Shown here: positions 163 to 63,617 of the stretch, one piece after another
Position numbering within the stretch: the first letter of the stretch is position 1
Layout of the letters: the number at the start of each line of letters is the position of its first letter
Assembly (NCBI GenBank): GCA_050633065.1
Contig: JBOEFV010000048.1
Coordinates: 9,970 to 73,969 of the forward strand
Length of the DNA stretch: 64,000 nt
DNA from: Bdellovibrionales bacterium
Lineage (GTDB): Bacteria > Bdellovibrionota > Bdellovibrionia > Bdellovibrionales > UBA1609
Reading direction: 5' to 3'
Made by a program: the position numbers and the translations under genes
Notes under the pieces: generated by a model
Seen by the model: the letters and a program-made list of their open reading frames with translations, nothing else
What the model was told of the DNA's origin: nothing
Database searches by the model: none

Positions 163-191
163 ATCATGAGTTTCGTTTTGAACGAATTTAA

Positions 192-210: not shown

Positions 211-233
211 GCATATTACAATGGCAGGAGCAT

Positions 234-671
234 ATGAAAACTTGGAACGCAAAACCAAATGAAATTGAGAGAAAGTGGTGGATTGTAGACGCTACTGGAA
301 AGACTTTAGGTAGACTTTCAACAGAGATCGCACAAACTCTTAGAGGAAAAAATAAACCTCAGTACACACCACATGTAGACACTGGTGATTTCGTAGTTGT
401 GATCAACTCTGAGAAAATCAAAGTAAACGGTAAGAAAGCTGAACAAAAAACTTACTTCAGACACACTGGTTATTTTGGTGGAATCAAAGAGACTTCTTAT
501 AAAGAAATGCTTGAAAAGAATCCTGACAGAATTATCACTAAAGCTGTTGAAGGTATGCTTCCAAAGAATATACTATCATCACAAATCATTAAAAAATTAA
601 AAGTATACGCTGGTTCAGAGCACCCACACGCTGCTCAAAAACCTGAACTACTTACACTTAAGGAGTCTTAA
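234..671 (+). CDS. rplM: 50S ribosomal protein L13 (uL13)
   Basis: 145 aa. The N-terminus [21 protein letters not shown] is typical of uL13. SD AGGAG at 226-230; rpsI follows 3 nt later, as in the conserved rplM-rpsI operon. Confidence 0.97.
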
Positions 672-6400: not shown

Positions 6401-6488
6401 AATGTAAAGATTAAATGAATATTGTAACCTTTCCAAGTGAGAAAAACTCGCCTTTAAAAGAGTTCTATTGTATCCGATACTATAAGTG

Positions 6489-7436: not shown

Positions 7437-7538
7437 GCTCAAATCCCTCCCTTAAACTCATATAAAACACAAAGATTGACTTAATCACCACTTACCGTTT
7501 GGATACTTTTTTACTACTGAAAAACACGGAGAACACAT

Positions 7539-14397: not shown

Positions 14398-14889
14398 TTA
14401 GAGAAGCTCTTTAAGCCTCTCTTTTAAAACACTTAATTCAAATGGTTTTGTAAGGTAATCATCTGCACCTACCTTTTTTCCTCTAGCGATGTCCATTTCG
14501 CTATCTTTTCCAGATACAAAAATTAATGGGATATCTTTTAAGTCATCGTTTCTTTTTAAAATTTCAGCAAGCTCATAGCCATTAACCCATGGAAGGCCGA
14601 TGTCTAAAAGAATTAAATCTATGGGGTCTGCACCCAATACTTTACTAAGTTGAGTGCCGTCTAAAGACGCTGTTACCTTATACCCTTCACGCTCTAAAAA
14701 GCGAACCATCGCATTTCTAAAGGTGTCATCATCATCAATTAATAATATATGAAAAGGTGTTTTGTTTTCTTTTTTAATTCTTCGGAACTCACTTAACGAA
14801 ACAACGTCCTCTGACTTAACTCTTTCTTTCGTTATTTTTTCAATCTCATCAACTAAACTCTGTACGTTGATCTTTTTACGATCGCTCAT
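14398..14889 (-). CDS. Single-domain response regulator (receiver only) with an N-terminal extension of about 45 aa
   Basis: ILLIDDDD, LILLDIGLP (phospho-acceptor Asp) and DYLTKPF (conserved Lys). Confidence 0.8.
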   Translation of the reverse strand: MSDRKKINVQSLVDEIEKITKERVKSEDVVSLSEFRRIKKENKTPFHILLIDDDDTFRNAMVRFLEREGYKVTASLDGTQLSKVLGADPIDLILLDIGLPWVNGYELAEILKRNDDLKDIPLIFVSGKDSEMDIARGKKVGADDYLTKPFELSVLKERLKELL

Positions 14890-21150: not shown

Positions 21151-22155
21151 TTATACCAGGCTTAAAGCCTTCTTTCTTCTCGTTCCTATATCAAAGTGGT
21201 TTCCTTTAAATTCTTCATATATGAACCCCACTTCATTTTCCTTAAAAAGCTTTCGAATTTTTCTAACTCCATATTGAAGTAAAAATTGATCAAACTCTCC
21301 AACAGATAAAAATATCGTCTTTAAAGATTTCACAGCATCTAATCTCTTAGGCAAGAAATGTACTGGGTCCTTCTCAAGCCATTTAGACCACAGATCCTGA
21401 TCAAAGCCACCCTCTTTTTCTAAAGGCAATATCGGCATATTGTTTTCATCTATTTTTGAATAACAGGCCGCCATCGCCAAAACATTCACCATTGTATGAA
21501 AGCTTCGCTGATTCGTTTTAATATCAAAACCTTTAATCTTATTTAAAATTTCTAAAGGCCCATCTTGATTCATGATGTCTGCAAAACCTTGATAAACCTC
21601 ATGTTTGAGGCTGACCTCAAAATCACAATCTGGAGCAATAGCTAAACAGTGAGGGAAAACCTCAGGAAACTTAGAGCAAAGATGTAGAGCCCCATAACCA
21701 CCACTGGATCCACCAAGGACCACCTTATCAGCAACACTATAATCTATACTTTTTAAACTCTTTTCAACAAATGGAACAAGCTCTTTAACAATATAGTCTT
21801 CATACTTTCCACAGCCTTCACTATTTATAAACTGGCTTCCACCCCATGATGTCCATGCATCTACAAACACATAAATCTTAGGACTTATTGATTCACTCAT
21901 CGTCCACTCATCAATTTCTTCAATTAAGTTTTGCTCATAAGATTTAAAATTAAAATTCTTTTGAGCATTGCTCGTAAAACCCGAAAGATGAAAAACACAG
22001 TTATAACCACCCTGCTTTTTAGGCACCAACACCGGTATATTTCTAACAAAAGAATCCCCTAGAGGATTCTCTTTTAAAGACTCACTTTTTATTTGAAGTG
22101 TTTTAATTTCAAAGTTTTTTAATTCATAAGGCTTAAGGTTGTCTTCAAACACCAT
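21151..22155 (-). CDS. Putative esterase (esterase D / enterochelin-esterase-like alpha/beta hydrolase)
   Basis: VLGGSSGGYGALH nucleophile elbow and VFVDAWTSWGGSQF. The start ATG overlaps the stop of the upstream REC-GGDEF gene (TAATG). Confidence 0.65.
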   Translation of the reverse strand: MVFEDNLKPYELKNFEIKTLQIKSESLKENPLGDSFVRNIPVLVPKKQGGYNCVFHLSGFTSNAQKNFNFKSYEQNLIEEIDEWTMSESISPKIYVFVDAWTSWGGSQFINSEGCGKYEDYIVKELVPFVEKSLKSIDYSVADKVVLGGSSGGYGALHLCSKFPEVFPHCLAIAPDCDFEVSLKHEVYQGFADIMNQDGPLEILNKIKGFDIKTNQRSFHTMVNVLAMAACYSKIDENNMPILPLEKEGGFDQDLWSKWLEKDPVHFLPKRLDAVKSLKTIFLSVGEFDQFLLQYGVRKIRKLFKENEVGFIYEEFKGNHFDIGTRRKKALSLV

Positions 22156-23114
22156 TAAGCCGCTTTTTTCTCATCTAGATCTATCTCATTTAAATCAAAA
22201 CCCTTAACCCTGTTTCTTCCTGTTTCCTTTGACTCATATAAGGCTCTATCAGCCCACTGGACAAGCTCTTTAGCTGTCAAATTTCTTCCAACGCTTGGTC
22301 TTAAAACCGCAAGCCCCATACTAGTTGTAAGGTCCATTCGGTGCTCACCGTTATTAAAATCATACTCTTCAATTGAGCGCCTGAGTCTTTCAGCATACTT
22401 CATTGCACCCTCATAGTCTGTCCCTGTTAGGATCACCATAAATTCATCACCACCATAACGTGCACCAAAATCAACATCCCTCATAGAGGATTTAATGATA
22501 CCGCCTACTTCTTTTAAAACAAAACTTCCAAATAAATGATCATGATCGTCGTTCACTCTTTTAAAGTGATCCATATCCATCATAATTGCACAAATTCCTG
22601 AGCCAAATCTTATATTTCTGCTGATTTCAAGGTTAATACGATCATACATTCCACGCATGTTATACAGCCCTGTAAGGTCATCGATTTCCACTAAAGCTTG
22701 AAGCTTTTTATTAGCCTCAGATAATTTATCCGTTAAGTTTTTGATTCTTAATTGAGTTTTAACCCTTGCAACAAGTTCATGTAAATTGAAAGGCTTACAA
22801 ATATAATCATCAGCCCCCGCCTCAAGCCCCTTAATAACATCCTGAGTGTCTGAGTTGCCAGAAACGAGTACAACAGATGTGTATTCTTCTCTTTTCCTAA
22901 CAATTTCGAGTGTTTCCAGCCCACTTAAGCCTGGCATATTTACATCAAGCAACACAAGGTGTGGCTCTGTTTGATCTAATTTCTGTAGGGCTTCATTTCC
23001 AGAGGCAGCAACACTTATCTCATAGCCATAAGACTCCAAAATCATCGTCATCAACTCTGATATTTGTGGGTCATCATCAACTATTAAGACCTTCTGTGAT
23101 TTTACACTCTCCAT
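22155..23114 (-). CDS. Response-regulator diguanylate cyclase (REC + GGDEF, PleD/WspR-like)
   Basis: VLIVDDD, LVLLDVNMPG, YICKPF and a coiled linker. RDVDFGARYGGDEF contains the GGDEF active site plus an RxxD I-site five residues upstream. Confidence 0.9.
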   Translation of the reverse strand: MESVKSQKVLIVDDDPQISELMTMILESYGYEISVAASGNEALQKLDQTEPHLVLLDVNMPGLSGLETLEIVRKREEYTSVVLVSGNSDTQDVIKGLEAGADDYICKPFNLHELVARVKTQLRIKNLTDKLSEANKKLQALVEIDDLTGLYNMRGMYDRINLEISRNIRFGSGICAIMMDMDHFKRVNDDHDHLFGSFVLKEVGGIIKSSMRDVDFGARYGGDEFMVILTGTDYEGAMKYAERLRRSIEEYDFNNGEHRMDLTTSMGLAVLRPSVGRNLTAKELVQWADRALYESKETGRNRVKGFDLNEIDLDEKKAA

Positions 23115-29711: not shown

Positions 29712-29863
29712 GCAAAAAAAGCGCCCTTAATACAAACCTTTAAAGCTTCCAAACCCGTTTAGAAACTGCTCAATGTGACATTTAACGGCCTTTTTCATCT
29801 CATTTTTTTACCACTCTCACTCTAAAGTTGATCAGCTGGAACAAATTTTGCTATTTAAAGCCT

Positions 29864-31006
29864 ATGAAACTGCGTCTTCTCATACTACAGCTAACCCTCC
29901 CCTTCCTTTGCCAGCAGGCAAACGCAGGCTTTTCTTGTAAAAGTATACTCTCAAATCACCCTAGCACTTTAAGGCTTTCTCCCTATAAAAGAGATCCACA
30001 TGAAATCGGAGACAGTGATCACTCAAAAGATGCAGTGGAGGCCTTAGCTCCCCACATTAAAGGAACCCGCATCCCGCCCCATACTCGAGAACAATGTTAT
30101 GGCACCTGCTATGCCTATTCTAATGCTGTCCTTGTAGAAAACGCCTTAAAGCAACAACATATAATTCCCGCCGACGGTCTACTTTTAACAGCTCCAATTC
30201 TTTCAGCAACAGCCCTTAGAAGAATGAGAGAAAAACCAGGTCTTTCCATTGAAGAGTCTATAAACGGCGGCAACTCTGATCTTATGTATGATCTTAGTAA
30301 CTCTTCAATTTTTTATGTCACCGGTGAAAACATAGCCTCTCTTGGCAGCAGTAAAAACCTATTGTCTTTAGAAACTAGTTTTTTTAGGGAGTTTGCTGAA
30401 GGTAGTTTTAAATACAGAGGACAGGGCTTAAAAGAAGTTTTACTTCAAGGCGCCATCTTTTCTCCGCAAAGAAACACCACCCTAGCCTTTCAAGAGTATG
30501 TAAAACAAAAAACCGGGGTACCCTTAAACGTTAGTCGAGCCAGCATCAGCTCCATTCGTTTTTTTAATATTCAGACACACATTTATGAATCACAAAATTT
30601 TCTAATTTCATCACACATTTCAACAGCCACACACCCCGCCCCGAGAAACACTCAGTTTGAAGTCGGAAATTTCTTAAGACTTGGAAGAATGTTACCCGGA
30701 AGCCCCTTTTCTTTTGCCTCAAGTAATTTTATGGAGAAACTACTCCCCTCACTCATCAAAAAACTTAAAGAAGACCACTTTGTACGGATTTCATTTCAAG
30801 GCGATGTTTTTGGAGAACCACACACAGTTATTTTGACTAATTTAGTAATTAATCGTGATAATAATACCCTCTTAGGCTTTTTATTCCTAAATTCTCACAG
30901 CACTCACTGGGGGTCTCATGGCTACGGATTTGTCTCTGTACAAGAACTGCTTAGTTACGCCACCGGATATGAGATCTTAAATCACCTTGAAGTAGTAAGA
31001 CCTTAG
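29864..31006 (+). CDS. Secreted papain-like (C1-type) cysteine peptidase homologue
   Basis: EQCYGTCYAYSNAV parallels papain NQGSCGSCWAFSAV (oxyanion Gln plus catalytic Cys). EPHTVILT parallels VDHAVAAV (His). FLNSHSTHWGSHGYGFV parallels IKNSWGTGWGENGYIRI (Asn-Ser-Trp region). The track start is TTG 29828; I prefer ATG 29864, which gives the signal peptide MKLRLLILQLTLPFLCQQANA. Confidence 0.6.
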   Translation: MKLRLLILQLTLPFLCQQANAGFSCKSILSNHPSTLRLSPYKRDPHEIGDSDHSKDAVEALAPHIKGTRIPPHTREQCYGTCYAYSNAVLVENALKQQHIIPADGLLLTAPILSATALRRMREKPGLSIEESINGGNSDLMYDLSNSSIFYVTGENIASLGSSKNLLSLETSFFREFAEGSFKYRGQGLKEVLLQGAIFSPQRNTTLAFQEYVKQKTGVPLNVSRASISSIRFFNIQTHIYESQNFLISSHISTATHPAPRNTQFEVGNFLRLGRMLPGSPFSFASSNFMEKLLPSLIKKLKEDHFVRISFQGDVFGEPHTVILTNLVINRDNNTLLGFLFLNSHSTHWGSHGYGFVSVQELLSYATGYEILNHLEVVRP

Positions 31007-36988: not shown

Positions 36989-38176
36989 ATGAAACATTTA
37001 ATAAAAAGCCACTTACTTCTTTTTTTAACATTCGCTCTTATCTCTTGTGATAATGATGATAAAAGTAACTCAGTCACTTTTATAGACCCCGTCCCAACCA
37101 CTAATGCTTCCGCACAAGATTTCTTTAGTGCATTACAAGAGTCTGAAACCCAATTGAACATCAAGTATGGTTTTAGACTGATTGTTCAAAATAACGGGCA
37201 GATTGATTATACAAAGCTTGTACAGAGTGATTTTAGACGGCTTGCACGCGTGCACAACATAACAATACAAGACATAAAGTCTCAATATTTTGAAGACATC
37301 TATCATTTTTCATTAAATTATAGCACATTACAAGACCGCGAAAACACTCTTCGTAATTATAATAATGATCTTTTTAACATCTATGTTTCAAAAACATTTG
37401 AAACAGGACAGGTCTTTTCACTAAAAAGAATTGCATACTATAATACTCGCGCTCAAAGGCTTGAAGAAGCTCTTGAAAATGCTGGTTTAGTATTACGCAC
37501 CGTCTGGGCTCTTGGAGAGTCTCCCATTGCACTTCCTCTTGCTGACATCACTAAACTTCGACAAGCTCCAGCAAGGCTTAAAAATCAATTGGTAGAAACT
37601 TCAAGGGTTTGCACTAAGTTAAATGAGATAAGCATATCTTCTGACCCCTTTACAACTAACAATGTCAGTGTTGAAGACTGCTCTCCTGAAAGCAGCATTC
37701 TTTACTATGTAGGCGCTTTAAACCTTGCTTCACTTTCAAATCAAAACATTCTTCAGCCAAGGGCAATTAGAAACGCTGTTAAAGACTATACTGATGTGAA
37801 AACTCTAGAGCTTCACCAAATTGCAAATTACTTCTTGGGTGAGAATATGATTTATATTTCACACAATTCAGCAACCGGCCTGGACATGACTAGAAGAGGC
37901 CCATGGGCTAGGAGCATTCGTCAGTCTTATCAAAACACAGCTCCTCACATTGTTCGCATCGCCCTAAGAAACAACCTTTATGAAAATCTTATTTTCAAAA
38001 AGAAGGTGATTAAATTTGAACTTTTGAGCAATTCAAATTTAAGTCCTGCTGAAAAAGCTCAGCACCGCAATGTCATTAGCACTATTGATAGAATCACTAG
38101 TGGCATCCAATACGATTCAAACTTAACTTTTAGTGTTGGAATTTCTCCAGTAGACGGATTTGTATTTAACTACTAA
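36989..38176 (+). CDS. Lipoprotein, no recognised family
   Basis: Lipobox LLFLTFALISCDN; 395 aa. Confidence 0.5.
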   Translation: MKHLIKSHLLLFLTFALISCDNDDKSNSVTFIDPVPTTNASAQDFFSALQESETQLNIKYGFRLIVQNNGQIDYTKLVQSDFRRLARVHNITIQDIKSQYFEDIYHFSLNYSTLQDRENTLRNYNNDLFNIYVSKTFETGQVFSLKRIAYYNTRAQRLEEALENAGLVLRTVWALGESPIALPLADITKLRQAPARLKNQLVETSRVCTKLNEISISSDPFTTNNVSVEDCSPESSILYYVGALNLASLSNQNILQPRAIRNAVKDYTDVKTLELHQIANYFLGENMIYISHNSATGLDMTRRGPWARSIRQSYQNTAPHIVRIALRNNLYENLIFKKKVIKFELLSNSNLSPAEKAQHRNVISTIDRITSGIQYDSNLTFSVGISPVDGFVFNY

Positions 38177-39016: not shown

Positions 39017-39682
39017 TCACCTCTCTCCAAAAATTGATCTGCCCAACCTGACATGTGTCGCTCCATGCTTAAGAGCATCTATAAAATCTCCAGACATGCC
39101 CATTGAAAGCACGCTCCAATTCTTTTGTTGCTCCAAGCCTAAACTCTTCCTAACTCTATCAAAATGTTTCTTCGCCCACAAGAATGATAAGCCGATCTCT
39201 TCTCCACTCATATCAAGAGGCGCAATAAACATTAAACCTAAAACATTGATGTTTTCTAGCTTGAAAGCTGTCTTTAAGAATTCATCAAGGTCCTCTTCTA
39301 AAACACCATAATCTCTTTTATCTAGCGGGTGTTTAATTTGGATGAGTACGTCTTGAGGGGCTTTTGTTTTTTCATTTATTTTTAAAAGGTGCTCCAACTT
39401 GGCAATTGTGTGAATGAGTGAAAACCTATTTATGAGCTTGTTTAAAGTTCCTGTTTGAACTCGCCCTAAATAATGCCACCTTATTGATAGATCTGAAAGA
39501 TTCTCGATTTTACTACAAGCTTCACTTAAATAGTTCTCCCCAAAGTCTCTTAAGCCACACGCATATGCTTCTTTAACCCTGGCTTCATCCACAGTTTTAG
39601 AAACGGCTACTAAGCTTCCACCTAAGCTTTCAACTTGATCTTTTAACAGCTTGATTTTTTCACACTCCAAGACTAACCCCAA
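39017..39682 (-). CDS. yggS: YggS-family pyridoxal-phosphate homeostasis protein
   Basis: LVAVSKT (PLP Lys), DFGENY, WHYLGRVQ and MGMSGDF. Confidence 0.88.
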   Translation of the reverse strand: MGLVLECEKIKLLKDQVESLGGSLVAVSKTVDEARVKEAYACGLRDFGENYLSEACSKIENLSDLSIRWHYLGRVQTGTLNKLINRFSLIHTIAKLEHLLKINEKTKAPQDVLIQIKHPLDKRDYGVLEEDLDEFLKTAFKLENINVLGLMFIAPLDMSGEEIGLSFLWAKKHFDRVRKSLGLEQQKNWSVLSMGMSGDFIDALKHGATHVRLGRSIFGER

Positions 39683-40299
39683 CTCTCAAGCTCTCTTTTT
39701 AGAGACTCCATGGGAAGCCCCACAACATTAGTATATGACCCTTCAATTTCTTTAACCAAGCTAAATGTCTCATCTTGAATCCCGTAGCCCCCAGCCTTTC
39801 CCAAAACTTCAGTATTGTTCTTCAAATATTCATCAACCCCTGACTCAGACACTTCTTTAAAATTGATTTTTGTTGTCTCAACCCAACTTTTGTCCTGTCC
39901 AGAGCCATCAAGCCTTAGCAAACAGCAAGCCGTATGAACAAATTGGCTCTTTCCACTGTAATCCAGAAGCCATTTCTTAGCCCGATGAAGACTTTCAGGC
40001 TTTCCTAAACTCTCGCCCTTAAACTCAACCATGGTGTCACATGTAAGGGCAAATTTGAAATCTCCATACCTAAGGCCAATTTCATCCTTAAAGTGTTCCA
40101 TTTTAATACATGCAAGCCTTTTGCACTGGTCGAAACAATTCAGGTTTTCATCAATAATTTCCGATGTTTCTAGAGAGAAAGGTTCAAATTGATACCCTGC
40201 TTGAGTGAGTAGCTGCACTCTTCGTGGTGATTTGGAAACCAACAAAATGGAGGAGTTTAAATTGGACTCTATGCTGAATTTAGATTTTATACTGCTCAT
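39673..40299 (-). CDS. maf: Maf-family nucleoside-triphosphate pyrophosphatase
   Basis: LLVSKSPRR..LL, CDTMV, KAGGYGIQ and SYTNVVGLP. The N-terminus is about 17 aa longer than usual. Confidence 0.85.
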   Translation of the reverse strand: MSSIKSKFSIESNLNSSILLVSKSPRRVQLLTQAGYQFEPFSLETSEIIDENLNCFDQCKRLACIKMEHFKDEIGLRYGDFKFALTCDTMVEFKGESLGKPESLHRAKKWLLDYSGKSQFVHTACCLLRLDGSGQDKSWVETTKINFKEVSESGVDEYLKNNTEVLGKAGGYGIQDETFSLVKEIEGSYTNVVGLPMESLKRELESWG

Positions 40300-41173
40300 C
40301 CTGGGAATTGCCTCCGGAAGCTATGCTGTATATTTAATATCAAGAGTTATCCTTGGAGACAACTCAGATTCTTCATCTTTAGCATGGGCTACAGGAGATG
40401 AGCCTGCAGAGTCAAAGTCCCCCGTAATTAATATCTCAAGACCACTTATTCATAATTTTACACTTGTGCATGCACAAAAAATTAAATCTGAAAGCTATAG
40501 AAAAAAGATCGAAGACAACCTTAAAAAATCAGGGATTTCAAGAGAGCTTAACGTTGATGAATTCATTGGTATGCAAATCTTATGGGGCGCAATGTTCCCC
40601 TTCTTCTTGTTCTTCTTCAACTTCGCTCTTGACCTAGGGATTCCTCCTGTAGGCCTCCTTGGCCTTGGGGTTCTAGGCTTTGCCTTCCCAAATCTTTACG
40701 CCAGTGATCAAAAGAAGAAAAGAAACCTTTCAATACAAACTGATCTACCATTTTTCATCGATCTCTTAGCTTTAACGACCGAGGCAGGGATGGATTTTAT
40801 CGGAGCCATACAAAGAATTGTAGAAAAAGCTCCCGATAGCGTTCTTGCTGATGAGATGAAAGAATTACTTGCTGAGATCCGTGTTGGTAGCTCACGAGCG
40901 GATGCTTTAAGAAATTTTTCAGATCGAATTGATCTAAGTGAAATCATGAGTTTAGTTGCTGTTGTAATTGATGCTGATTCTGCCGGTGTTCCTATTCATA
41001 AGGTTTTAAAAGATCAGGCAGAGGAAATGAGACTTGAGCGTTTTGTTCGAGCTGAAAAAGCCGGCGCAAAAGCATCACAGTCTATGATGATTCCAATGGT
41101 GCTCTTTATTGTGCCTGCAGTATTTTTAACCGTTTTAGGTCCTGTTGTATTAGGCTTTATGGGGCAAAACTAA
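40247..41173 (+). CDS. TadC-type / type II secretion system F-domain inner-membrane platform protein
   Basis: A single T2SS-F domain: LPFFIDLLALTTEAGMDFIGAIQRI...GSSRADALRNFSDRI...SAGVPIHKVLKDQAEEMRLERFVRAEKAGAKASQSMMIPMVLFIVPAVFLTVLGPVV. The start is uncertain. The track gives GTG 40205 and an ATG lies at 40247. An in-frame TTG at 40262 sits 6 nt after a strong GGAGGAG. Confidence 0.8.
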   Translation: MEEFKLDSMLNLDFILLILGIASGSYAVYLISRVILGDNSDSSSLAWATGDEPAESKSPVINISRPLIHNFTLVHAQKIKSESYRKKIEDNLKKSGISRELNVDEFIGMQILWGAMFPFFLFFFNFALDLGIPPVGLLGLGVLGFAFPNLYASDQKKKRNLSIQTDLPFFIDLLALTTEAGMDFIGAIQRIVEKAPDSVLADEMKELLAEIRVGSSRADALRNFSDRIDLSEIMSLVAVVIDADSAGVPIHKVLKDQAEEMRLERFVRAEKAGAKASQSMMIPMVLFIVPAVFLTVLGPVVLGFMGQN

Positions 41174-41176
41174 CTA

Positions 41177-41530
41177 ATGAGTAATCCTAACCTTTATAAC
41201 TCTACCACCAACGCACTAGTAGCTGATGATCTCTTAATTGCAGATTCTTTTTATACGCGCTTGATGGGGCTAATGGGTAAAGCTTCTTTTTCAAATGAGA
41301 AAGCTATGCTTTTTAAAGGGCACCCGTCTATTCACACCTGCTTTATGAGGTTCCCAATTGATGTGGTTTTCTTAGATAAGAACATGGTTGTAACTGATGT
41401 TATTGAAAACCTAAAACCCTGGAGATTTACGTCGCCTTTTAGGTTTCAAAGCAAATACTGCATTGAATTTAGTAGTAATAAAATTTCCAATAAAGTTTCC
41501 AAAGGAGATCTTTTAGATGTACGCACTTAA
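41177..41530 (+). CDS. DUF192-family protein
   Basis: RLMGLMGK....AMLF....IHTCFMRFPIDVVFLDKN..V......LKPWR matches the DUF192 (COG1430) consensus as I recall it. No signal peptide is visible. Confidence 0.72.
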   Translation: MSNPNLYNSTTNALVADDLLIADSFYTRLMGLMGKASFSNEKAMLFKGHPSIHTCFMRFPIDVVFLDKNMVVTDVIENLKPWRFTSPFRFQSKYCIEFSSNKISNKVSKGDLLDVRT

Positions 41531-43049
41531 AGTTCTCTCAGGGGGAAACGCTGGACAAACATATCCGCTCGCAGCAAACGAAGTCTTCATAGGAAGGTCT
41601 CCTCAGTGCGAAGTGGCGATTCCAAATAAGAATATTTCAAAAAAGCATGCAAAAATAATTCTTGATCGCGATAGAATTCTTTTTACAGACTTAAACTCTA
41701 CAAACGGATCTTTTGTTAATGGCATCAAAGTAGAAGTGACCCTTATTAAAAAAGGGGACAAAATCTCCCTATACGACACAATCTTAGAGGTCGTTGAAAA
41801 TGATCAAATGCCTCTTTTAGGAGGCGGCGCAGCTCCAGGTGAAGCGAGCAGCGATGATCTTGAATTAAGTTACGGCTCCCCTGTAGAAAAACTTCTACAC
41901 AAAGCTGATAAGTATTTAGATAAGGCAGCAATGCCACCTCTACACTTAATGAGTGAAAAGATCGATTTTAAGTGGATCATAGGACTTCTTCTTTTTTCAT
42001 GCATACTAGCAACAGCTCTACTTTCAACAATACCTCTTATGAGCATAATTCAAGATACTGTTGAACTTGAAAGCAAAAGAAGAGCAAGCTCTTTAGCAAA
42101 AAGCTTAGCCATCAATAACAGAAAACCTTTACAAAGCGGAAGTCTCTCTGGAGCCTCTGTTGAATTTGCATATAAAGAGCCCGGTGTAAAAAAGGCTTAT
42201 ATTATCAGACAAAGCAATGGTGAGATTGTAAGCCCCTCTATATTTTCAGGGCAATTTCCAAAGAATCCTTCTGTGCATCAAGCTAGAAAAATCACAGAAC
42301 GACCTTTTCATGTTTTTAAAGCTAATAAAAGCACTATAATAGCTATGCACCCTATTAAATTTTACTCATCCAGAGATAGCGCTGAACTTACAAAGTTTTA
42401 TACTGTTGTTATTTATGATGCCAAAGTTCTATCTCTTGGAAACGAAAAGACCTTAAGCCTTTTTGTACAAACTCTATTCCTATCTCTACTCTTTGGATTA
42501 GTGGTTTTCTATTTCTTATTTAAAATAGTGGAATACCCTTTCTCAAGTCTTCTAAAAGACTTAAAGAAAGCTCTTCATAGTGGCGCCCATGAAGAAATAA
42601 ACACTCCAATTCTGTTTAGTCCTTTAAAAGAACTCTACGTTATTTCCTCAAGTCTTTTAAATAGGTCCGGAGATTCTGGAGGAGACTCACAATCAATGGC
42701 TGTTGAAGCTGACCGCTCCCTTGAAGTTCAAAACTTAGTAGAAATGCTTGGCTACGCCTCTATTATTATTTCTGGAGAGGATCAGAGTATTCTTGACTAC
42801 AACCCTCTCTTTGAAGAACTTACAAACTTATATGACATCAAGGGACTTAGGCTTGCTGAACTAACAGATCAAGCACTTCAACAAAATCTTATTGATTTAG
42901 TGGAGCGATCAAGAGTTTCTCCAGATCAAATAAACACCAATTCATTTGAGTTTACTGGAATTCCATATGAGGTGCGCATGCATCCCATTTATGGAACCAG
43001 CGATATCGCCTATTTTGTTTGTTCATTCTTTCCTGTGGAGCCTGAATAA
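41517..43049 (+). CDS. FHA-domain membrane protein (FHA, TM, extracytoplasmic domain, TM, cytoplasmic C-terminal domain)
   Basis: N-terminal FHA domain: VFIGRSPQCEVAIPNKNISKKHAKI......FTDLNSTNGSFVNG. TM segments WIIGLLLFSCILATALLSTIPLMSII and LSLFVQTLFLSLLFGLVVFYFLF. Overlaps DUF192 by 14 nt. Confidence 0.8.
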   Translation: MYALKVLSGGNAGQTYPLAANEVFIGRSPQCEVAIPNKNISKKHAKIILDRDRILFTDLNSTNGSFVNGIKVEVTLIKKGDKISLYDTILEVVENDQMPLLGGGAAPGEASSDDLELSYGSPVEKLLHKADKYLDKAAMPPLHLMSEKIDFKWIIGLLLFSCILATALLSTIPLMSIIQDTVELESKRRASSLAKSLAINNRKPLQSGSLSGASVEFAYKEPGVKKAYIIRQSNGEIVSPSIFSGQFPKNPSVHQARKITERPFHVFKANKSTIIAMHPIKFYSSRDSAELTKFYTVVIYDAKVLSLGNEKTLSLFVQTLFLSLLFGLVVFYFLFKIVEYPFSSLLKDLKKALHSGAHEEINTPILFSPLKELYVISSSLLNRSGDSGGDSQSMAVEADRSLEVQNLVEMLGYASIIISGEDQSILDYNPLFEELTNLYDIKGLRLAELTDQALQQNLIDLVERSRVSPDQINTNSFEFTGIPYEVRMHPIYGTSDIAYFVCSFFPVEPE

Positions 43050-43990
43050 TGTCAAGTTTAGCGCTTCAAACCTCAAACGAATTTTATCTAAAAGCTATCA
43101 CTGGAAAGCTTAAGGGGACTGTTTTTAGACTCAGTTCTGATGAAATTTTCATAGGAAGAGACCCAACAAACCACATTTCTATTCCTGACGATTCTAAACT
43201 TAGTCGCAGACATGCTAGACTAATTTTAAATAAGGGGCAGTACTATGTACAAAACCTATCTTCTAAAAATTCTATAAAAATTAATAATGAGACTGTTTCG
43301 CAATCAGAACTTAGAAACAACTATATCTTCACCATAGGCAACCAGTCTTTTAAATTTATCTCTATTTCAAAAGATCAAAGTGTTGCCGCTAATGAGCGCT
43401 CAGCTTCACAGTCAGCAAGAAAAACTCCGCAAGCAAAGACTTCTGCAAGTAATAAAAATATTTTCTATGCCGCGACAGCTATTTTAATCGCTGCAGGACT
43501 TTATATATTTACATCAGACCCTATGCAGCAAGAGAAAAAAGCTCTTCGTGAAATAGCGACCACTGAAAAAATCTTAGAACGTGTTGAAAAAAATAAAACT
43601 GAATCCACTGAGCTGATTGAGAATATTGAAAAATCAGGAAAGAACACAAAAGAGTATAAATCTGCTCATTCTTTTTATATTAAAGGCATGCGTGACTTCC
43701 AAAAAGGTCTTTATGCACAGGCCCTTTCTTCTTTTGACACCTGCTTGTCAATTTATCCATCTCATCAATTAGCACGGCGCTACAGTGAGCTTTCAACCAA
43801 TAGACTTGAAGAACTTATTGCATTTAACATGAGCCAAGGGGTGACAAATCTTGAAAATGGAAAAAATGATTTCTGCATTTCTTCTTTTAGAAACGTAATG
43901 TCACAGATTAATGACAAAACTGACACCCGTTACATTGAGGCCAAACAACTTCTAGAAAAGTGTAAACTCTTAAAAAGGAGTAAATACTAA
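43049..43990 (+). CDS. FHA-domain bitopic membrane protein with a TPR-like C-terminal region
   Basis: FHA domain: IFIGRDPTNHISIPDDSKLSRRHARL...VQNLSSKNSIKINN. TM segment IFYAATAILIAAGLYIF. The start overlaps the upstream stop (TAATG). Confidence 0.8.
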   Translation: MSSLALQTSNEFYLKAITGKLKGTVFRLSSDEIFIGRDPTNHISIPDDSKLSRRHARLILNKGQYYVQNLSSKNSIKINNETVSQSELRNNYIFTIGNQSFKFISISKDQSVAANERSASQSARKTPQAKTSASNKNIFYAATAILIAAGLYIFTSDPMQQEKKALREIATTEKILERVEKNKTESTELIENIEKSGKNTKEYKSAHSFYIKGMRDFQKGLYAQALSSFDTCLSIYPSHQLARRYSELSTNRLEELIAFNMSQGVTNLENGKNDFCISSFRNVMSQINDKTDTRYIEAKQLLEKCKLLKRSKY

Positions 43991-45984
43991 TGATTAATCT
44001 TAAAGTTTTTGAAGATTCTGATGTTTTCTTTGAAGACTCTTTTACACAAGCAAAAGAGATCACCGTAGGAAGAGGGAGCTATTGTGATATTATCTTATCT
44101 GGCCATCCAGGTATTTCAAGATCGCATTTTAAAATTATTATTCAAGAGGACTTATCGGTCGTCATAGAAACTGTTTCCAAAACTGGGAAACTAATACACC
44201 GTGGAACAAATATAACGGATATTTCATTTGATAGCGGAGTACACACCATAAGCGTACCGCCCTACGACTTCACTTTTGAGCTTCCTGAAAAAGAGGCCTT
44301 TGAAACACACACTGCCTCTATCGAAGAAGAGCACACTGCTGAGGCTCCTGCTAGAGATGCTTATGAAGAACAAGCCCTTGCCGTAACTGAAGAAGAAACG
44401 AGTCTAAGCCCTGTTGGCTTTGATGAAGATGAGAAAACAAAGACAGCGATAGCAGCCCCTTTAGAATACTCCGTCAAAGTGTTCAAAGGTGAACGTCTTT
44501 TACAAGAGCTGGCTCTTGAGGGAAGCTCTTGGGATTTTGGTAGAGACCAAGATTGTCATTATACTATCAAATCTAAAAAAACCAGTCGCAAGCACTTTAC
44601 CGTTTTAAACATTAGATCAAAATTTTTCGTAAAAGACTTAGGCTCCTCAAATGGTACTTTTTTAAACAAACAACAGCTACCCGTTAACCAGGAGATTGAG
44701 TTAAAGTCCGGGGATTATATTGAGGTTTCTGATTTTAGATTTATTTTTGAAATCAAGGACCACTCTTTTGGTGAAAAAGTAAAAGATGTTGCCCTTATTG
44801 AACAGTTTGGACGTGACGATGTTCTTAAGAATTTAAATGAGATTGATAGTTTACGCGAAAGTGCTCTTTCTATTAACGATGAATTCTTAAAGCTCCCTGA
44901 AAAAGACCGCCCTTCAATGGTTGCGCAAACTCCAAAGAAGAAGAACTATTTAAGACCGGCTCTTTTAGGGCTAATTCTTATTGCTGGAGGCCTTTACTTT
45001 TTTCAAGACAACTCAAGTGAAATAGACAGCGCTGAGCTTGCATCAATACAAGAAGAGAAAAGACTTGCAAAAGAGCGCGTTAACGCCGCTGTTGATAAGT
45101 TCAACCTTGGACTACGTTTTTATAACGAGTCTCAGTTTGAGCGATGTATTTTTGAGATTGATGAATTTATGAAGTATGATGTTCAGACTGAAGAAACTAA
45201 TGGGGCGCTTGAGTTAAAGAATCAATGTGAAATTGAAAAAGACCGCCTGCAAAGAAAGCTTGATCTTGAAGCACAAGAAGAGCAGAAACTTGCCATAGAA
45301 CGTAAAATTCAAGAAATTGTAGACCTCTGCGCTCCAAAGGCGAGTGAAGGATCTTCTGTCTTAAAGCCTTGTGTTGAACCCGCTTTCAGTCTAGACCCCT
45401 CTAATGAGAAGGTGGCTGAGCTACTTGATATTGCCGAAGCTACAGATCTAAGACGAGAGCAAGAAGAGGCCAATGCTGAAAAGTATCGAAAGAGTGTGGC
45501 CTCAGGAAGAGCCCTCTACAAAAAAGCTGAAAACTATGACCGTTATGGCGATTGGAAAAGAGCTCTTAAAGCCTATGATAAGCATATTAAAAGCAGGTAC
45601 CCTGATCCAGGAAAACTAAAGAAGAAGGCCTCGAGGAATATAGCCTCCATCAATCGCAGGATTGACGGAATCCTATCAGCCGCTTTGACTGAATCTAAAA
45701 AGCATCTTGAAAATGATGATTATAAAAACTCGGTTCTTGCCGCCAATAAAGGGCTTGAAGTGAACCGTGACCATCCAGAGTTACTTAAAACTAAAGCTAC
45801 TGCATCAAAGAACCTAAAGACTATTCTTCGTAAATATTATCAAGAAAGCGTGATTCAAGAAGACTTTGGGCAAATTGATGAATCTAAGGTTCTATGGAAG
45901 AAGATCTTAAACCAAGGAATTAAAGGGTCTGACTACTATCAAAAAGCTAAGCTTAAACTTAAGTATTATGAAGAAGGGGTTTAA
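43990..45984 (+). CDS. Double-FHA bitopic membrane protein with a long coiled-coil/TPR-like C-terminal region
   Basis: FHA domain 1: ITVGRGSYCDIILSGHPGISRSHFKI. FHA domain 2: WDFGRDQDCHYTIKSKKTSRKHFTV...VKDLGSSNGTFLN. An acidic linker joins them. TM segment LRPALLGLILIAGGLYFF. The start overlaps the upstream stop (TAATG). Confidence 0.8.
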   Translation: MINLKVFEDSDVFFEDSFTQAKEITVGRGSYCDIILSGHPGISRSHFKIIIQEDLSVVIETVSKTGKLIHRGTNITDISFDSGVHTISVPPYDFTFELPEKEAFETHTASIEEEHTAEAPARDAYEEQALAVTEEETSLSPVGFDEDEKTKTAIAAPLEYSVKVFKGERLLQELALEGSSWDFGRDQDCHYTIKSKKTSRKHFTVLNIRSKFFVKDLGSSNGTFLNKQQLPVNQEIELKSGDYIEVSDFRFIFEIKDHSFGEKVKDVALIEQFGRDDVLKNLNEIDSLRESALSINDEFLKLPEKDRPSMVAQTPKKKNYLRPALLGLILIAGGLYFFQDNSSEIDSAELASIQEEKRLAKERVNAAVDKFNLGLRFYNESQFERCIFEIDEFMKYDVQTEETNGALELKNQCEIEKDRLQRKLDLEAQEEQKLAIERKIQEIVDLCAPKASEGSSVLKPCVEPAFSLDPSNEKVAELLDIAEATDLRREQEEANAEKYRKSVASGRALYKKAENYDRYGDWKRALKAYDKHIKSRYPDPGKLKKKASRNIASINRRIDGILSAALTESKKHLENDDYKNSVLAANKGLEVNRDHPELLKTKATASKNLKTILRKYYQESVIQEDFGQIDESKVLWKKILNQGIKGSDYYQKAKLKLKYYEEGV

Positions 45985-45986
45985 GT

Positions 45987-46649
45987 ATGAAATTTGAATC
46001 CTTTGGGTACCGAGGAAGCTTCGTGTTCACTCCTCCACTTGTTTTTAAAAGTCAGTCTGAGAATTTAATTGTCGCAGCAACTCCTTATGGAAACAGTGCT
46101 GATCTTGAAAACTGCCTTGCTGAGTTCTTAAATGAATTTGAAAATCAATCTTCGGACTTAGATGCCACATCTCCTTATCCAAAGCTTACATGTTTTAATG
46201 GGCAAGAAAACCTTCTCTACACCTGCTTACAATTCCTAAATGACTATATGTATTCAAATTACAATAAAAGCAGTATCAATCTTGGGTGCGATCTTTTTTG
46301 CGCTTTAAGAGTTGAGGACACCATTTACTTTTCTCAAATAGGGTGGCCTTTAATTCTCCTTCATAGAGATAAAAGAACTCTTCCTATTTGCTCTGACTAC
46401 TCTTTTCTTCCTAAGAACAAGGAGGCCGCCCCATACATTCCTTCTTCAATACTTGGTACAGAATCAAGCGTTAATCTTAAAATACAACAAACCAATCTAA
46501 GTAGTGATTCAGAACTTCTACTTTTAAAATCCAACGATTCACCGGACTCATTATTAAGTATTTATCCAAGTCCTTTAAAATCTATTGCAAATGCGTACGC
46601 TGAAGAAAACCCTGAACAAGGATTTTGGCTAGGAAAGATCAGCCTTTAA
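45987..46649 (+). CDS. PP2C-fold-like protein with degenerate catalytic motifs (putative pseudophosphatase)
   Basis: By-eye alignment to the intact PP2C at 5669-6400. NLIVAATPYGNS aligns with KLFVVADGMGGH. GCDLFCALRVEDTIYFSQIGWPLILL aligns with GTTMVALFIYEKVAYIANVGDSRAYV. SELLLLKSND aligns with EKYLLCSDG. The metal-binding Asp residues are replaced. Starts 2 nt after the upstream stop. Confidence 0.45.
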   Translation: MKFESFGYRGSFVFTPPLVFKSQSENLIVAATPYGNSADLENCLAEFLNEFENQSSDLDATSPYPKLTCFNGQENLLYTCLQFLNDYMYSNYNKSSINLGCDLFCALRVEDTIYFSQIGWPLILLHRDKRTLPICSDYSFLPKNKEAAPYIPSSILGTESSVNLKIQQTNLSSDSELLLLKSNDSPDSLLSIYPSPLKSIANAYAEENPEQGFWLGKISL

Positions 46650-57714: not shown

Positions 57715-58581
57715 TTAAACTAATTTAATAATATTATTTTCCACTGAGACTACAATAAGTGAAACATCTTGCATAGGCCTGCGACCGCCTAAATGCTGGT
57801 CTAGCTTGTGGAAAATATCGTTTCTTAGATCATGAACTGATTGAGTTAGAGGCACTGATGACATCGCCTTTAAAATTGGCGTGGTTGAAAAGGCATTTCC
57901 CTTAGAGTCTGGTGCTGACACCATACCAGGAGAAGCAATCACAATCCGGTCATAAGGCTTGAGTTTTATAACAGTTTCAGTTGAAAGCTCCTTAAAGTCT
58001 ACAACTCCACCCGTTTCACCATCTTGAAGAAAACATGCAACTGTTCCGTGAACTTTGTATGTGAGCTCATAAGTTTTTTTATCAATTAGCATGCAAGCAA
58101 TTTGAATCTCACTCGGGTTTTCTTTCTTTGCCTCAATTTCTTCTAAAACTTTATCTATGAAATAGACTGGAGAAGGAGCTGTCCCATCTCCTAAATCTCT
58201 GCCGTGTTTTAATAAAAACGCAATCAGCAAAGCCGTAAGTGAAGGCCCTGTTGAAGAAGAGAGAATCAGATTAAATTTAAATCTGTCTTTTTGTTCAAAA
58301 ACATCCAAATAATCTCCGTTAAACCTCATTCCAGATAAAAACTTTGTGCTAAAATGAAAGCCCGAAATATGAGGGAACTGTGTTGGAACAAGGTACTTAA
58401 AGATACTACGGACTAGGCTTAAATCACCATCTAATCCCATTAGAATCTTTGAAACAGCCATATTTAGCCGCTCAATTTCATTCTTATATGTACTTAAATC
58501 CTGCTCCCTTTCTGAAAGCTCTTTCTTAACTTTACTTAACTCCTGCTCTAAAACTGCTACTTTTGTGTCGGAATCCATCAC
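57715..58581 (-). CDS. Coiled-coil plus SpoIIE/PP2C-like domain protein with degenerate catalytic motifs
   Basis: GDYLDVF parallels GGDFYDV. LILSSSTGPSLTALL stands in place of igDVSGHGxxAA. VIASPGMV stands in place of llyTDGl. QDVSLIVV stands in place of DDiTllvl. It lies 13 nt upstream of citrate synthase on the same strand. Confidence 0.55.
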   Translation of the reverse strand: MMDSDTKVAVLEQELSKVKKELSEREQDLSTYKNEIERLNMAVSKILMGLDGDLSLVRSIFKYLVPTQFPHISGFHFSTKFLSGMRFNGDYLDVFEQKDRFKFNLILSSSTGPSLTALLIAFLLKHGRDLGDGTAPSPVYFIDKVLEEIEAKKENPSEIQIACMLIDKKTYELTYKVHGTVACFLQDGETGGVVDFKELSTETVIKLKPYDRIVIASPGMVSAPDSKGNAFSTTPILKAMSSVPLTQSVHDLRNDIFHKLDQHLGGRRPMQDVSLIVVSVENNIIKLV

Positions 58582-62321: not shown

Positions 62322-62456
62322 ATGCTTAGATTAGTGATTTTTTTAACTGCTCTTATTGGCACGTCTACGTTTAGTACAAACAACAGAGATGTTAGCATCG
62401 ATGACTTAGCAAAAACTCAGCAGTGCTTACTTTTGGATGATTCTGCTGATCAATAG
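62322..62456 (+). CDS. Candidate 44-aa small secreted peptide, not in the ORF track
   Basis: GGAGG at 62313-62317 lies 4 nt before the ATG. Translation: MLRLVIFLTALIGTSTFSTNNRDVSIDDLAKTQQCLLLDDSADQ*, with a signal-like N-terminus. The last 30 nt overlap the 3' end of the convergent lysozyme gene. Confidence 0.3.
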   Translation: MLRLVIFLTALIGTSTFSTNNRDVSIDDLAKTQQCLLLDDSADQ

Positions 62457-63131
62457 CTTATTGCTAAAAACATTTACATCAACAGGCGCGTCAATACCCT
62501 TAACCTCACCACCGTTGTAGTATTGCCAGATTCCCCATCTTTTTTCATACATTGGCGGCCCCACTAAAGAACGCAGCCAAAAAATATTTTTAAATTTAAA
62601 AATTTCTGGATGCAGTTTTGCGAACTCTCTCGTTGTGTAAACAACTGGAAGCTCTCCGTAAGTTGCTAAAATTTTTGCATTAAGCTTTTCTAAATCTTTT
62701 GAAAGTCTTGCTGACGCATCATCTAAACCACATCCGTAAGCAGACTCAATATCTATGGCTGGAACCATATCTCCTATAGAGTGAGGGACTGTGTCTTTTA
62801 AATTTTTAATTTGTTCTTCAGCTGTTTTACAAAAAGTCCAAAAGTGATAGCCACCAACTAACAAACCTTCTTTTTTTGCGCCCGCATAGTTTTTTAAAAA
62901 ATTTTTATCTTTAAATGATGCGCCTTCTGTAGACTTGATATAAACAAATTTAAAATGGCTCTTGCCCACAAGCTTCCAGTCAATATCTCCTTGATGGTGA
63001 GACACATCCAAACCACTTACATTAAAAAAGGTTTTAGAGGGATAATTAAACTGCTTTTTTCCAGTGTAACCCCAATAAAAAAGCCCCGCTGTTAACAAAT
63101 AAGAACCTAATGCAAGACCATACCACTTCAT
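62427..63131 (-). CDS. Glycoside hydrolase family 25 muramidase (lysozyme) with an N-terminal membrane anchor or signal
   Basis: GLDVSHHQGDIDW, FVYIKSTEG, GGYHFW and DVNVF are typical GH25 motifs. Hydrophobic N-terminus MKWYGLALGSYLLTAGLFYWGY. Confidence 0.85.
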   Translation of the reverse strand: MKWYGLALGSYLLTAGLFYWGYTGKKQFNYPSKTFFNVSGLDVSHHQGDIDWKLVGKSHFKFVYIKSTEGASFKDKNFLKNYAGAKKEGLLVGGYHFWTFCKTAEEQIKNLKDTVPHSIGDMVPAIDIESAYGCGLDDASARLSKDLEKLNAKILATYGELPVVYTTREFAKLHPEIFKFKNIFWLRSLVGPPMYEKRWGIWQYYNGGEVKGIDAPVDVNVFSNKLLISRIIQK

Positions 63132-63218: not shown

Positions 63219-63617
63219 ATGCTGAACATGGGACTTCTAAAGGACAAATTAGACAAATTCTCTCTTGCTCTTAAAAATCTTGAGGAGGCTTTATCAGATC
63301 CTATTAAAACCAATAGAGACCGTGCCGGCATCATTCAAACATTTGAGTTTACCTATGAGATGTCTTGGAGGCTTCTTAGGGAGCTCTTAGCACAACAAGG
63401 GTTTGAAGCCCCTTCATCACCTCGCTCTGTTTTTAAGGACGCATATTCTGCAAAGCTTATAAATAACGAAGAAGCGTGGCTTAGTATGATTCTCCAAAGA
63501 AATCTAACAACTCACACATATGATCAGAACACAGCTGATGAAGTCATTAAGTTAATTTCATCCTCTTACCTCCCCAACCTTAAATCTTTATATGAAACAG
63601 CCCAGCAGCATTCCTAA
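63219..63617 (+). CDS. HEPN-domain protein, HI0074-type nucleotidyltransferase substrate-binding subunit
   Basis: IIQTFEFTYEMSWRLLRELL and the Rx4H HEPN motif in ILQRNLTTHTYD. Confidence 0.8.
   Translation: MLNMGLLKDKLDKFSLALKNLEEALSDPIKTNRDRAGIIQTFEFTYEMSWRLLRELLAQQGFEAPSSPRSVFKDAYSAKLINNEEAWLSMILQRNLTTHTYDQNTADEVIKLISSSYLPNLKSLYETAQQHS

Follow-up and report, generated by a model that had tools for sequence, protein, structure and literature searches.

The stretch of DNA considered here (the window) comprises 64,000 nucleotides (nt) from a Bdellovibrionales bacterium (contig JBOEFV010000048.1, positions 9,970 to 73,969). It holds a pack of six plus-strand genes that encode a TadC-type inner-membrane platform protein, a DUF192 protein, three membrane proteins with four FHA domains between them, and a small protein predicted to have the PP2C phosphatase fold (Table 1). 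Judged by gene order and sequence, this operon is the counterpart of Bd0470–Bd0475, the "tadC locus" of Bdellovibrio bacteriovorus. As a whole, it is probably best explained as a tadC locus split from a Kil-like Tad (type IVc) machine, with the FHA proteins forming a collar and the product of gene 6 being non-catalytic. In the list of open reading frames (ORFs), the junctions are, in order, a 3-nt gap, a 14-nt overlap, TAATG, TAATG and a 2-nt gap. The six ORFs and these junctions agree exactly with an earlier reading made from the sequence alone (the sequence-only reading), save for the start of tadC, which is more likely an internal ATG.

Table 1. Genes of the operon and predicted domains and transmembrane segments of their products (residue numbers refer to each protein; tildes mark approximate limits)
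Feature	Position	Strand	Description
Gene 1, tadC	40271..41173 (mechanical ORF 40205-41173)	+	300 amino acids (aa) from ATG 40271
Gene 1 T2SSF domain	~40754-41137	+	Single domain
Gene 2, DUF192 protein	41177..41530	+	117 aa
Gene 3, FHA sensor-like protein	41517..43049	+	510 aa
Gene 3 FHA	aa 5-94, ~41529-41798	+	Cytoplasmic
Gene 3 transmembrane segment 1	aa 154-172	+	Hydropathy scan
Gene 3 alpha/beta domain	aa ~173-319	+	Periplasmic
Gene 3 transmembrane segment 2	aa 320-338	+	Hydropathy scan
Gene 3 PAS-like domain	aa ~401-506, ~42717-43034	+	Cytoplasmic
Gene 4, FHA-transmembrane-TPR-like protein	43049..43990	+	313 aa
Gene 4 FHA	aa 17-104	+	Cytoplasmic
Gene 4 transmembrane segment	aa 138-156	+	Hydropathy scan
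Gene 5, double-FHA-transmembrane-TPR protein	43990..45984	+	664 aa
Gene 5 FHA1	aa ~5-95	+	Pfam, motif kept
Gene 5 FHA2	aa 164-254	+	Pfam, motif kept
Gene 5 transmembrane segment	aa 320-338	+	Hydropathy scan
Gene 5 TPR-like domain	aa ~345-664	+	Periplasmic; weak Pfam TPR matches
Gene 6, PP2C-fold pseudophosphatase	45987..46649	+	220 aa, cytoplasmic

What do the first five genes encode? Pfam searches bear out the T2SSF, DUF192 and FHA assignments of the sequence-only reading. The T2SSF domain of gene 1 is found at E 4e-16 (59 bits against a cut-off of 25), and the protein has 1391 homologues, the top 120 of which are all of Bdellovibrionales type, mostly ~290-310 aa long, with several named "tight adherence protein C". 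The Tad locus of a Candidatus Schekmanbacteria metagenome-assembled genome (MAG; locus L086) holds both platform genes, and the window protein is 41% identical to its TadC (E 6e-57) and 25% identical to its TadB (E 4e-7). By this comparison, gene 1 is an orthologue of TadC and not of TadB. Many TadC relatives are longer, at 408-533 aa, with an N-terminal extension of ~130-280 aa (P0167-P0214); examples are L081:10001-11518, L088:38-1483 and L089:10001-11602, and at least one comes from a Bacteriovoracaceae MAG. These long variants were considered as FHA-TadC fusions, a notion that was rejected on finding the extensions without a Pfam match. A hydropathy scan gives four transmembrane segments for gene 1, two for gene 3, one each for genes 4 and 5 and none for genes 2 and 6.

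Gene 2 matches DUF192 (PF02643) at E 7e-17 (61.8 bits against a cut-off of 27), and its product is predicted to be cytoplasmic because it has neither a signal peptide nor a transmembrane segment. DUF192 lies immediately 3′ of tadC in every sufficiently long Bdellovibrionales locus and in five distant loci; in two others, L086 and the acidobacterial L087, it is found elsewhere inside the same Tad locus. A sequence search found no relative of the protein in the PDB; fold relatives of the family, 3pjy and 3m7a, have been described, and DUF192 beside Tad genes has been noted in Firmicutes too (PMC12786226). The protein may be viewed as a conserved cytoplasmic Tad accessory in several phyla, and an assembly or chaperone role for the platform would be a guess.

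The FHA domains of genes 3 and 4 are found at E 1e-15 (58 bits) and E 2e-14 (54 bits), and the two FHA stretches of gene 5 together at E 1e-24 (87 bits), all against a cut-off of 20.7. All four match the canonical phosphothreonine-contacting pattern GR..SxxH..[ST]x[NT][GS], and in the gene 3 family G26, R27, S41 and H44 are invariant. With the canonical residues intact, the four domains are predicted to bind phosphothreonine. Gene 4 has a periplasmic, helical, TPR-like domain with weak Pfam TPR matches. Gene 3 has a different plan. Its AlphaFold model (mean predicted local distance difference test score, pLDDT, 79) runs from the FHA domain through a transmembrane segment, a periplasmic alpha/beta domain, a second transmembrane segment and a helical linker to a C-terminal PAS-like domain, which has a weak Pfam PAS_9 match (E 0.004). 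The best Foldseek match in the PDB is the sensor kinase WalK (9a5d_A; E 4.5e-12 over 390 columns), and the next are FHA domains, including that of B. bacteriovorus DgcB. Gene 3 has the layout of WalK-type kinases, with a transmembrane segment, an extracytoplasmic PAS/Cache domain, a second transmembrane segment, a linker and a cytoplasmic PAS domain; unlike them, it starts with an FHA domain and lacks the DHp and catalytic ATPase domains. Indeed, Pfam finds neither HisKA (DHp) nor HATPase_c in it, and the model stops with the PAS-like domain. On the strength of the model, gene 3 is a WalK-like sensor input module without the kinase core.

The six-gene arrangement is strongly conserved. From a TadC-alignment scan with one genome per species, the best 80 of 271 loci were taken, all of them from Bdellovibrionales and several from B. 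bacteriovorus strains, and gene order was read by searching every ORF of each locus with the window proteins (BLASTP). The order tadC, DUF192, gene 3, gene 4, gene 5, gene 6 is complete in 64 of the 80; the other 16 hold in-order prefixes of it, and in 15 of these a contig end cuts the operon short. Chance would come nowhere near giving such a cluster, since the same order recurs in so many loci and is rearranged in none. The remaining prefix locus, L042 (locus length 19702), lies on a contig that runs on past gene 5 (the last operon ORF ends at 15427), with no gene 6 homologue by BLASTP; the gene may have been lost or may have diverged extremely far. In 76/80 loci, tadC has a divergent maf gene on its upstream side. 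Median amino-acid identity drops along the operon, from 56% for TadC to 38, 32, 30, 27 and 26% for genes 2 to 6.

The identification with Bd0470–Bd0475 rests on six shared genes whose order and orientation are unchanged, with maf divergent upstream and with matching products: TadC, DUF192, FHA/sensor, FHA/TPR, double-FHA/TPR and a small "hypothetical" protein. For example, the fifth gene of a B. bacteriovorus locus (L026) encodes 674 aa and matches 12/12 published residue positions of Bd0474. Gene 5 is the orthologue of Bd0474, and genes 4 and 6 are the positional orthologues of Bd0473 and Bd0475. The two loci differ in sequence, TadC being ~57% identical to its B. bacteriovorus counterpart and genes 3-6 only ~24-31%, and in the downstream flank, where the window operon has lipB directly adjacent. 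The sequence-only reading had known of no described function for this gene set, a claim that does not stand, and had allowed that its view would fail if the genes were one-to-one orthologues of a characterised locus, which is in part the case. Bd0470 is the reciprocal-best hit of Myxococcus xanthus KilH and lies apart from the main Bd0110-0119 cluster (Seef et al. 2021, PMC8460266). Transposon mutants of HD100-derived strains have defined predation phenotypes: BD0470::tn shows no attachment, killing or rounding of prey, and BD0474::tn, in the same operon, retains attachment and loses killing and rounding, both defects being complemented (Duncan et al. 2019, PMC6561027). The possible link to predation raised from the sequence alone has thereby gained genetic footing. 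Bd0470-0475 form one operon, Bd0474 has an FHA-FHA-transmembrane-TPR plan and binds Bd0075 (GYF-transmembrane-TPR) in a two-hybrid assay, and a contact between Bd0473 and Bd0475 has been predicted with an interface predicted TM-score (ipTM) of 0.60 (PMC12034629). A July 2026 preprint names the "tadC locus", notes its FHA, TPR and PAS neighbours and the separation of tadC from tadB, reports that a tadC deletion was unobtainable (hence called essential by its authors), co-localises TadC-mCherry with RomR at the invasive pole, and finds the Tad machine at the pole already before prey contact (bioRxiv 10.64898/2026.07.08.737194).

Among more distant loci, reached by an exhaustive HMMER search of cluster representatives with TadC followed by contig look-ups, several place the block among other Tad genes. 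Two Bacteriovoracaceae-type loci, L081 and L088, have the six-gene order of the window, followed by a response-regulator gene; the L081 TadC is 32% identical to that of the window and has an N-terminal extension of ~200 aa. In another Bdellovibrionota MAG (L084), TadC, DUF192, FHA, FHA and FHA/TPR genes are followed by a Flp-like pilin gene, TadE-like genes and RcpC. The Ca. Schekmanbacteria locus (L086) runs through pilins, TadG-like, RcpC, secretin, TadZ::TadA, TadB, TadC, FHA/PAS, FHA/TPR, FHA/TPR and DUF192. A JGI contig of unassigned lineage (3300042731, known from its gene table only) carries this set too, headed by a true PP2C, and an Acidobacteriota locus (L087) has DUF192, FHA::TadZ::TadA, TadB, TadC and three FHA genes. 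Near-complete Tad sets, with TadZ::TadA and TadB, are thus present in L086, L087 and the JGI contig, with a secretin in one of them. Genes 3 and 4 align well past their FHA domains to the position-matched FHA genes of the distant Tad loci; gene 4, for example, aligns over aa 14-283, near its full length, to the second FHA gene of the Ca. Schekmanbacteria locus. Because the TadC-DUF192-FHA block adjoins other Tad genes in these loci, it can be regarded as integral to a Kil-like Tad subtype, which bears out the proposed link to a Tad-type machine. By comparison of gene order, it is the Bdellovibrionales that split the block off, between tadB and tadC.

The motor ATPase of L086, L087 and the JGI contig is a TadZ::TadA fusion (CbiA/ParA plus T2SSE; L086 6848-9121, L087 6624-9074, JGI contig 6975-9128), and this fusion and the TadC-FHA block together suggest that a Kil-like Tad subtype extends past the predatory lineages it had been assigned to. 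Directly after the three FHA genes, L087 and the JGI contig have a gene for another ATPase, PilB/GspE-like and of MshEN::T2SSE type (L087:14757-16559), which suggests a two-ATPase variant of the subtype. The MshEN domain family binds cyclic di-GMP (c-di-GMP). The L087 motor ATPase has an extra N-terminal FHA domain, as in M. xanthus KilF (PMC8460266).

In the window itself, all remaining ORFs of 110 aa or more were compared with Pfam, apart from three overlapping ones that are evidently spurious (one of which was later scanned and was blank). This sweep, which did not cover small Flp pilins, found no T2SSE/TadA, second T2SSF, secretin or prepilin peptidase; nor did it find a Pkinase/Hanks-type kinase. 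This agrees with the absences described from the sequence alone. To call tadC an "orphan" and to speak of a module "built around" a Tad-type platform, as that reading did, is misleading. TadC is to be read as the platform subunit of the main Tad/Kil-like machine, and it is an orphan in position only, the other Tad genes lying elsewhere in Bdellovibrio.

The sixth gene required structural evidence. Neither Pfam nor NCBIfam gives a match at E<=1, the PP2C, PP2C_2 and SpoIIE hidden Markov models included, and the B. bacteriovorus orthologue is likewise blank; the fold was therefore taken from AlphaFold and Foldseek. The model (pLDDT 84, predicted TM-score 0.84) matches the phosphatase tPphA at E 2e-12 with a TM-score of 0.68, and also PstP, the type VI secretion system (T6SS) regulator PppA, Stp1, RsbX and SpoIIE. 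The family is small in a large protein database, with 31 proteins that are all at least 47% identical and one 100% match from a Bdellovibrionales MAG. When the alignment was widened to 18 orthologues from related loci, B. bacteriovorus included, its profile met tPphA among PDB sequences at E 0.001. The metal-binding positions could then be compared. An invariant threonine, T32, stands opposite the Asp of the DGxGG motif, both D38 of PstP (low probability in hhalign, for which one sequence equal to the PstP portion of chain 2cm1_A was used) and D36 of the active-type PP2C of L081 (hhalign probability 94%). In the family profile alignment, W120 stands opposite D119 of tPphA and S182 opposite D193. 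None of the 18 orthologues, that of B. bacteriovorus included, has Asp at any of the three aligned metal sites. By eye, and not residue-aligned, the positions of the N-terminal (NED) and C-terminal (DN) motifs also show no conserved Asp across the 18, the family ending in FWLG in place of the DN motif. Because non-acidic residues occupy the aligned metal-ligand positions, the pseudophosphatase call of the sequence-only reading appears correct: by model and alignment, gene 6 is a PP2C-fold pseudophosphatase, predicted to be catalytically dead.

Where did this protein come from? The sixth genes of L081 (16554-17291) and L088 (6678-7400) have intact NED, D(G/A)FGG, (T/S)DG and DN motifs, and the L081 protein reaches 27 bits with Pfam PP2C_2 against a cut-off of 24. 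The gene 6 family profile aligns with the L081 PP2C at an hhalign probability of 94% (E 1e-7), an alignment that pairs T32 with the DGxGG Asp and S182 with the xDG Asp. The two also have a motif after the first helix in common, D-x-D-x-T-S-P-Y in gene 6 and DDP(N/D)(A/S)T-x-P-(L/F)-Y in the active-type L081/L088 proteins. On these alignments, gene 6 descends from an active-type PP2C that is kept at the same position in Bacteriovoracaceae-type loci. The response-regulator gene that follows the PP2C gene in L081 and L088 encodes 413-481 aa and is absent from the window. The ratio of nonsynonymous to synonymous substitution rates (dN/dS) of gene 6 is ~0.1 against its two closest relatives, within a range of 0.05-0.19 for the six genes (the gene 4-L002 comparison and both gene 5 comparisons excluded), values that are rough because dS is saturated (~1.5). 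At such a ratio, like those of the other five genes, gene 6 would be a maintained pseudoenzyme and not a decaying gene. The two Bdellovibrio papers checked on this point have no mention of "phosphatase" or "PP2C" for Bd0475; the descent of gene 6 from an active-type PP2C was not found in the literature searched, and neither was a description of the sensor fold of Bd0472. Relative to that literature, the origin of gene 6 and the WalK-like module of gene 3 are new, and the operon itself had already been described.

How might the six products work together? The best-supported part of the preferred reading is that TadC and a TadB encoded elsewhere form the platform of the predatory Tad machine. 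In detail, TadC (KilH) with TadB would make up the inner-membrane platform, on which a TadZ::TadA ATPase would assemble and retract Flp pili for holding and invading prey. Genes 3-5 would be accessory inner-membrane proteins, with their N-terminal FHA domains in the cytoplasm and the gene 3 sensor and gene 4/5 TPR domains in the periplasm, and they may form a trans-membrane scaffold or signalling collar around TadB/TadC. Such a collar could couple periplasmic or prey-contact events to the cytoplasmic motor via phosphothreonine-dependent contacts, with cues read by the gene 3 sensor domain and by TPR domains that bind partners such as Bd0075, and with the Ser/Thr kinase encoded elsewhere. The ancestral gene 6 product would have been an active PP2C that reset the FHA switch, its metal-binding Asp residues having since been lost in the Bdellovibrionales; the present one is most likely non-catalytic and would bind or protect a phospho-site or the gene 4 FHA protein. 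We infer the collar architecture, the phosphorylation dependence and the roles of genes 2 and 6. Phospho-regulation of the module, also proposed by the sequence-only reading, is likewise something we infer from sequence.

Other systems offer partial parallels. The comparison with M. xanthus kil uses published gene tables and not sequence: Kil cluster 2 contains MXAN_4648 (FHA+TPR), MXAN_4649 (FHA), KilH and KilG, alongside KilD and the FHA-bearing ATPase KilF (PMC8460266). The sequence-only reading was correct in that the kil clusters encode FHA proteins, which are enriched there (PMC8460266). Kil is likewise a Tad-like predation machine, its KilH and Bd0470 are reciprocal-best hits, and FHA and FHA+TPR genes adjoin kilH; kilH is, however, beside kilG (tadB) in M. 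xanthus, and no DUF192 or PP2C-like gene is among the listed kil cluster genes (PMC8460266). The M. xanthus machine also differs in being assembled at prey contact sites and not at the pole. The PpkA-PppA-Fha1 pathway of the Pseudomonas aeruginosa T6SS resembles the operon in that an FHA scaffold and a PP2C-family protein are encoded with an envelope nanomachine, and the gene 6 model has PppA as one of its best structural matches. It is unlike the operon in that the latter has no linked kinase, a dead PP2C and FHA domains fused to membrane proteins, and in that the machine concerned is a Tad pilus.

Several points weigh against the preferred reading. The window covers 64 kb, and the presence of TadA, TadB, secretin, RcpC and pilins elsewhere in the genome is assumed from relatives. 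The collar model rests on analogy, the published score for the Bd0473-Bd0475 contact falls in a grey zone, and the dN/dS values are rough, as noted. Moreover, no HRDxKxxN...DFG kinase motif was found in the window or in 87 related loci. The FHA domains could act without phosphorylation, because no kinase is linked and the operon phosphatase is dead; the FHA-like domains of SctD in the type III secretion system (T3SS) probably work in this way. In the extreme, the FHA proteins would be a purely structural, phosphorylation-independent Tad ring or scaffold, comparable to T3SS SctD/PrgH, and the dead PP2C a leftover adaptor. The lack of a Hanks kinase in the window and the 87 related loci fits this, as does the loss of metal ligands from the operon PP2C throughout the Bdellovibrionales, and a Tad machine that is at the pole before prey contact, as the preprint reports, fits constitutive assembly. 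The Pfam model Yop-YscD_cpl also scores equally to FHA on genes 3-5. The SctD equivalog of NCBIfam (TIGR02500), however, stays at or below 20 bits, where its cut-off is 86, and matches just the FHA part. The phosphothreonine-binding residues are present in all four FHA domains, invariably so at the four gene 3 positions, and sister lineages retain an active-type PP2C in the operon. Phosphothreonine-FHA signalling in Bdellovibrio prey invasion is documented for DgcB, with Bd3148 proposed as a kinase candidate (PMC6733907). We judge a purely structural role unlikely, but it is a serious rival.

It could also be argued that genes 2-6 are an independent envelope signalling or motility module, for example a GltG/GltJ-like one, that is merely co-transcribed with tadC and serves another machine (gliding, type IVa pilus or T3SS-like). 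The plan of gene 5 is that of M. xanthus GltG, with two cytoplasmic FHA domains, a transmembrane helix near residue 330 and a periplasmic part in a protein of ~650 aa (PMC11761067). A GYF domain is present both in Bd0075, which Bd0474 binds, and in GltJ, the partner of GltG, and the FHA domains give weak NCBIfam GltG matches. In addition, the phenotype of BD0474::tn, which attaches and does not kill, is unlike that of the tadC mutant (PMC6561027). These likenesses are set against a GltG model (NF033760) that matches nothing but FHA and reaches 28 bits where 650 are required, and a periplasmic part that is TPR-like in the window, whereas that of GltG is disordered and TonB-C-like. The genomic context is Tad and not Agl-Glt: all of the 64 complete Bdellovibrionales loci keep TadC, DUF192 and the three FHA genes side by side, and the block lies inside or beside near-complete Tad sets in L086, L087 and the gene-table contig, with a Tad context in four phyla. 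We regard an independent module as very improbable. As for a chance juxtaposition of unrelated genes, or ORFs that are not genes, the sole point in its favour is that gene 6 has no Pfam match; the idea is refuted by an order found in 64/80 loci and never rearranged and by the dN/dS range of the six genes, and the confident gene 6 model also speaks against it, leaving it a negligible probability.

What are the implications of the preferred reading, that of a split-off tadC locus with an FHA collar? At issue is how predators time and place the activation of their Tad/Kil pilus machines; in a 2025 review the FHA proteins of kil clusters are still only "promising candidates" (PMC12428579). The locus and its relatives provide a parts list for a Tad control layer, namely an FHA sensor, two FHA/TPR proteins, DUF192 and a PP2C whose version in Bacteriovoracaceae-type genomes is of active type and whose Bdellovibrionales version is dead. 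This contrast is directly testable in the tractable B. bacteriovorus through Bd0472, Bd0473 and Bd0475, and it may offer a route to the kinase. These unreported details make phospho-control of predatory Tad machines more testable. For annotation, "orphan" TadC genes in Bdellovibrionota should not be taken as remnants or as separate systems. A broader proposal is tentative, and we would give it only a modest chance of being right: TadC, DUF192, three FHA proteins and PP2C may be an ancient phospho-switch cassette of the Tad subtype with TadZ::TadA or FHA::TadZ::TadA, extending well beyond the predatory groups that Kil-like systems had been assigned to (Myxococcota, Bdellovibrionota and Bradymonadales) into Ca. 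Schekmanbacteria and Acidobacteriota. In the Bdellovibrionales, it would have been cut from tadB, with a pseudoenzyme that locks or reads the FHA collar. If true, this would help to explain polar pre-assembly in Bdellovibrio versus assembly on prey contact in Myxococcus.

The surroundings of the operon are housekeeping genes, as the sequence-only reading had described them: by Pfam, proC-yggS-maf on one side and lipB-lpdA-E2-lipA on the other. The 3′ end of gene 6 overlaps that of the convergent lipB by 21 nt. At the other end, a start of tadC at GTG 40205 would overlap the 5′ end of the divergent maf (39673-40299, minus strand) head to head by 95 nt. Since this ORF runs so far into maf and most homologues are ~290-310 aa long, the real start is most likely ATG 40271. 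Even with this start, the maf and tadC start regions overlap by ~29 nt, so a shared promoter region would lie within coding sequence. A promoter and terminator scan across the operon gave counts near those of shuffled sequence.

Elsewhere in the window, a bona fide PP2C gene (5669-6505, minus strand; PP2C_2 4e-16, PP2C 2e-9) lies ~34 kb upstream of the operon and adjoins genes for an M23 peptidase and a divergent TonB C-terminal domain protein (4641-5645, minus strand, and 6486-7436, plus strand). Its product may serve FHA-linked signalling in this genome as an active phosphatase. Sizeable ORFs without a Pfam match (280-550 aa) are found at 1260-2309, 2312-3160, 16683-18332, 29828-31006, 36989-38176, 57715-58581 and other positions, among them a 395-aa lipoprotein-like ORF just upstream of proC. 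A 922-aa ORF (7539-10307) was considered as a Bd0075-like GYF/TPR partner and rejected, as it has a transketolase-type domain. Near a tRNA-Arg gene at the window end are a GH25 lysozyme-family gene (62427-63131, minus strand) and a toxin-antitoxin-type gene of the HepT-like/nucleotidyltransferase-substrate-binding kind (63219-63617, plus strand). The window also encodes a response-regulator-GGDEF diguanylate cyclase (22155-23114, minus strand) and a stand-alone receiver protein (14398-14889, minus strand). Prey invasion in B. bacteriovorus is under c-di-GMP control.

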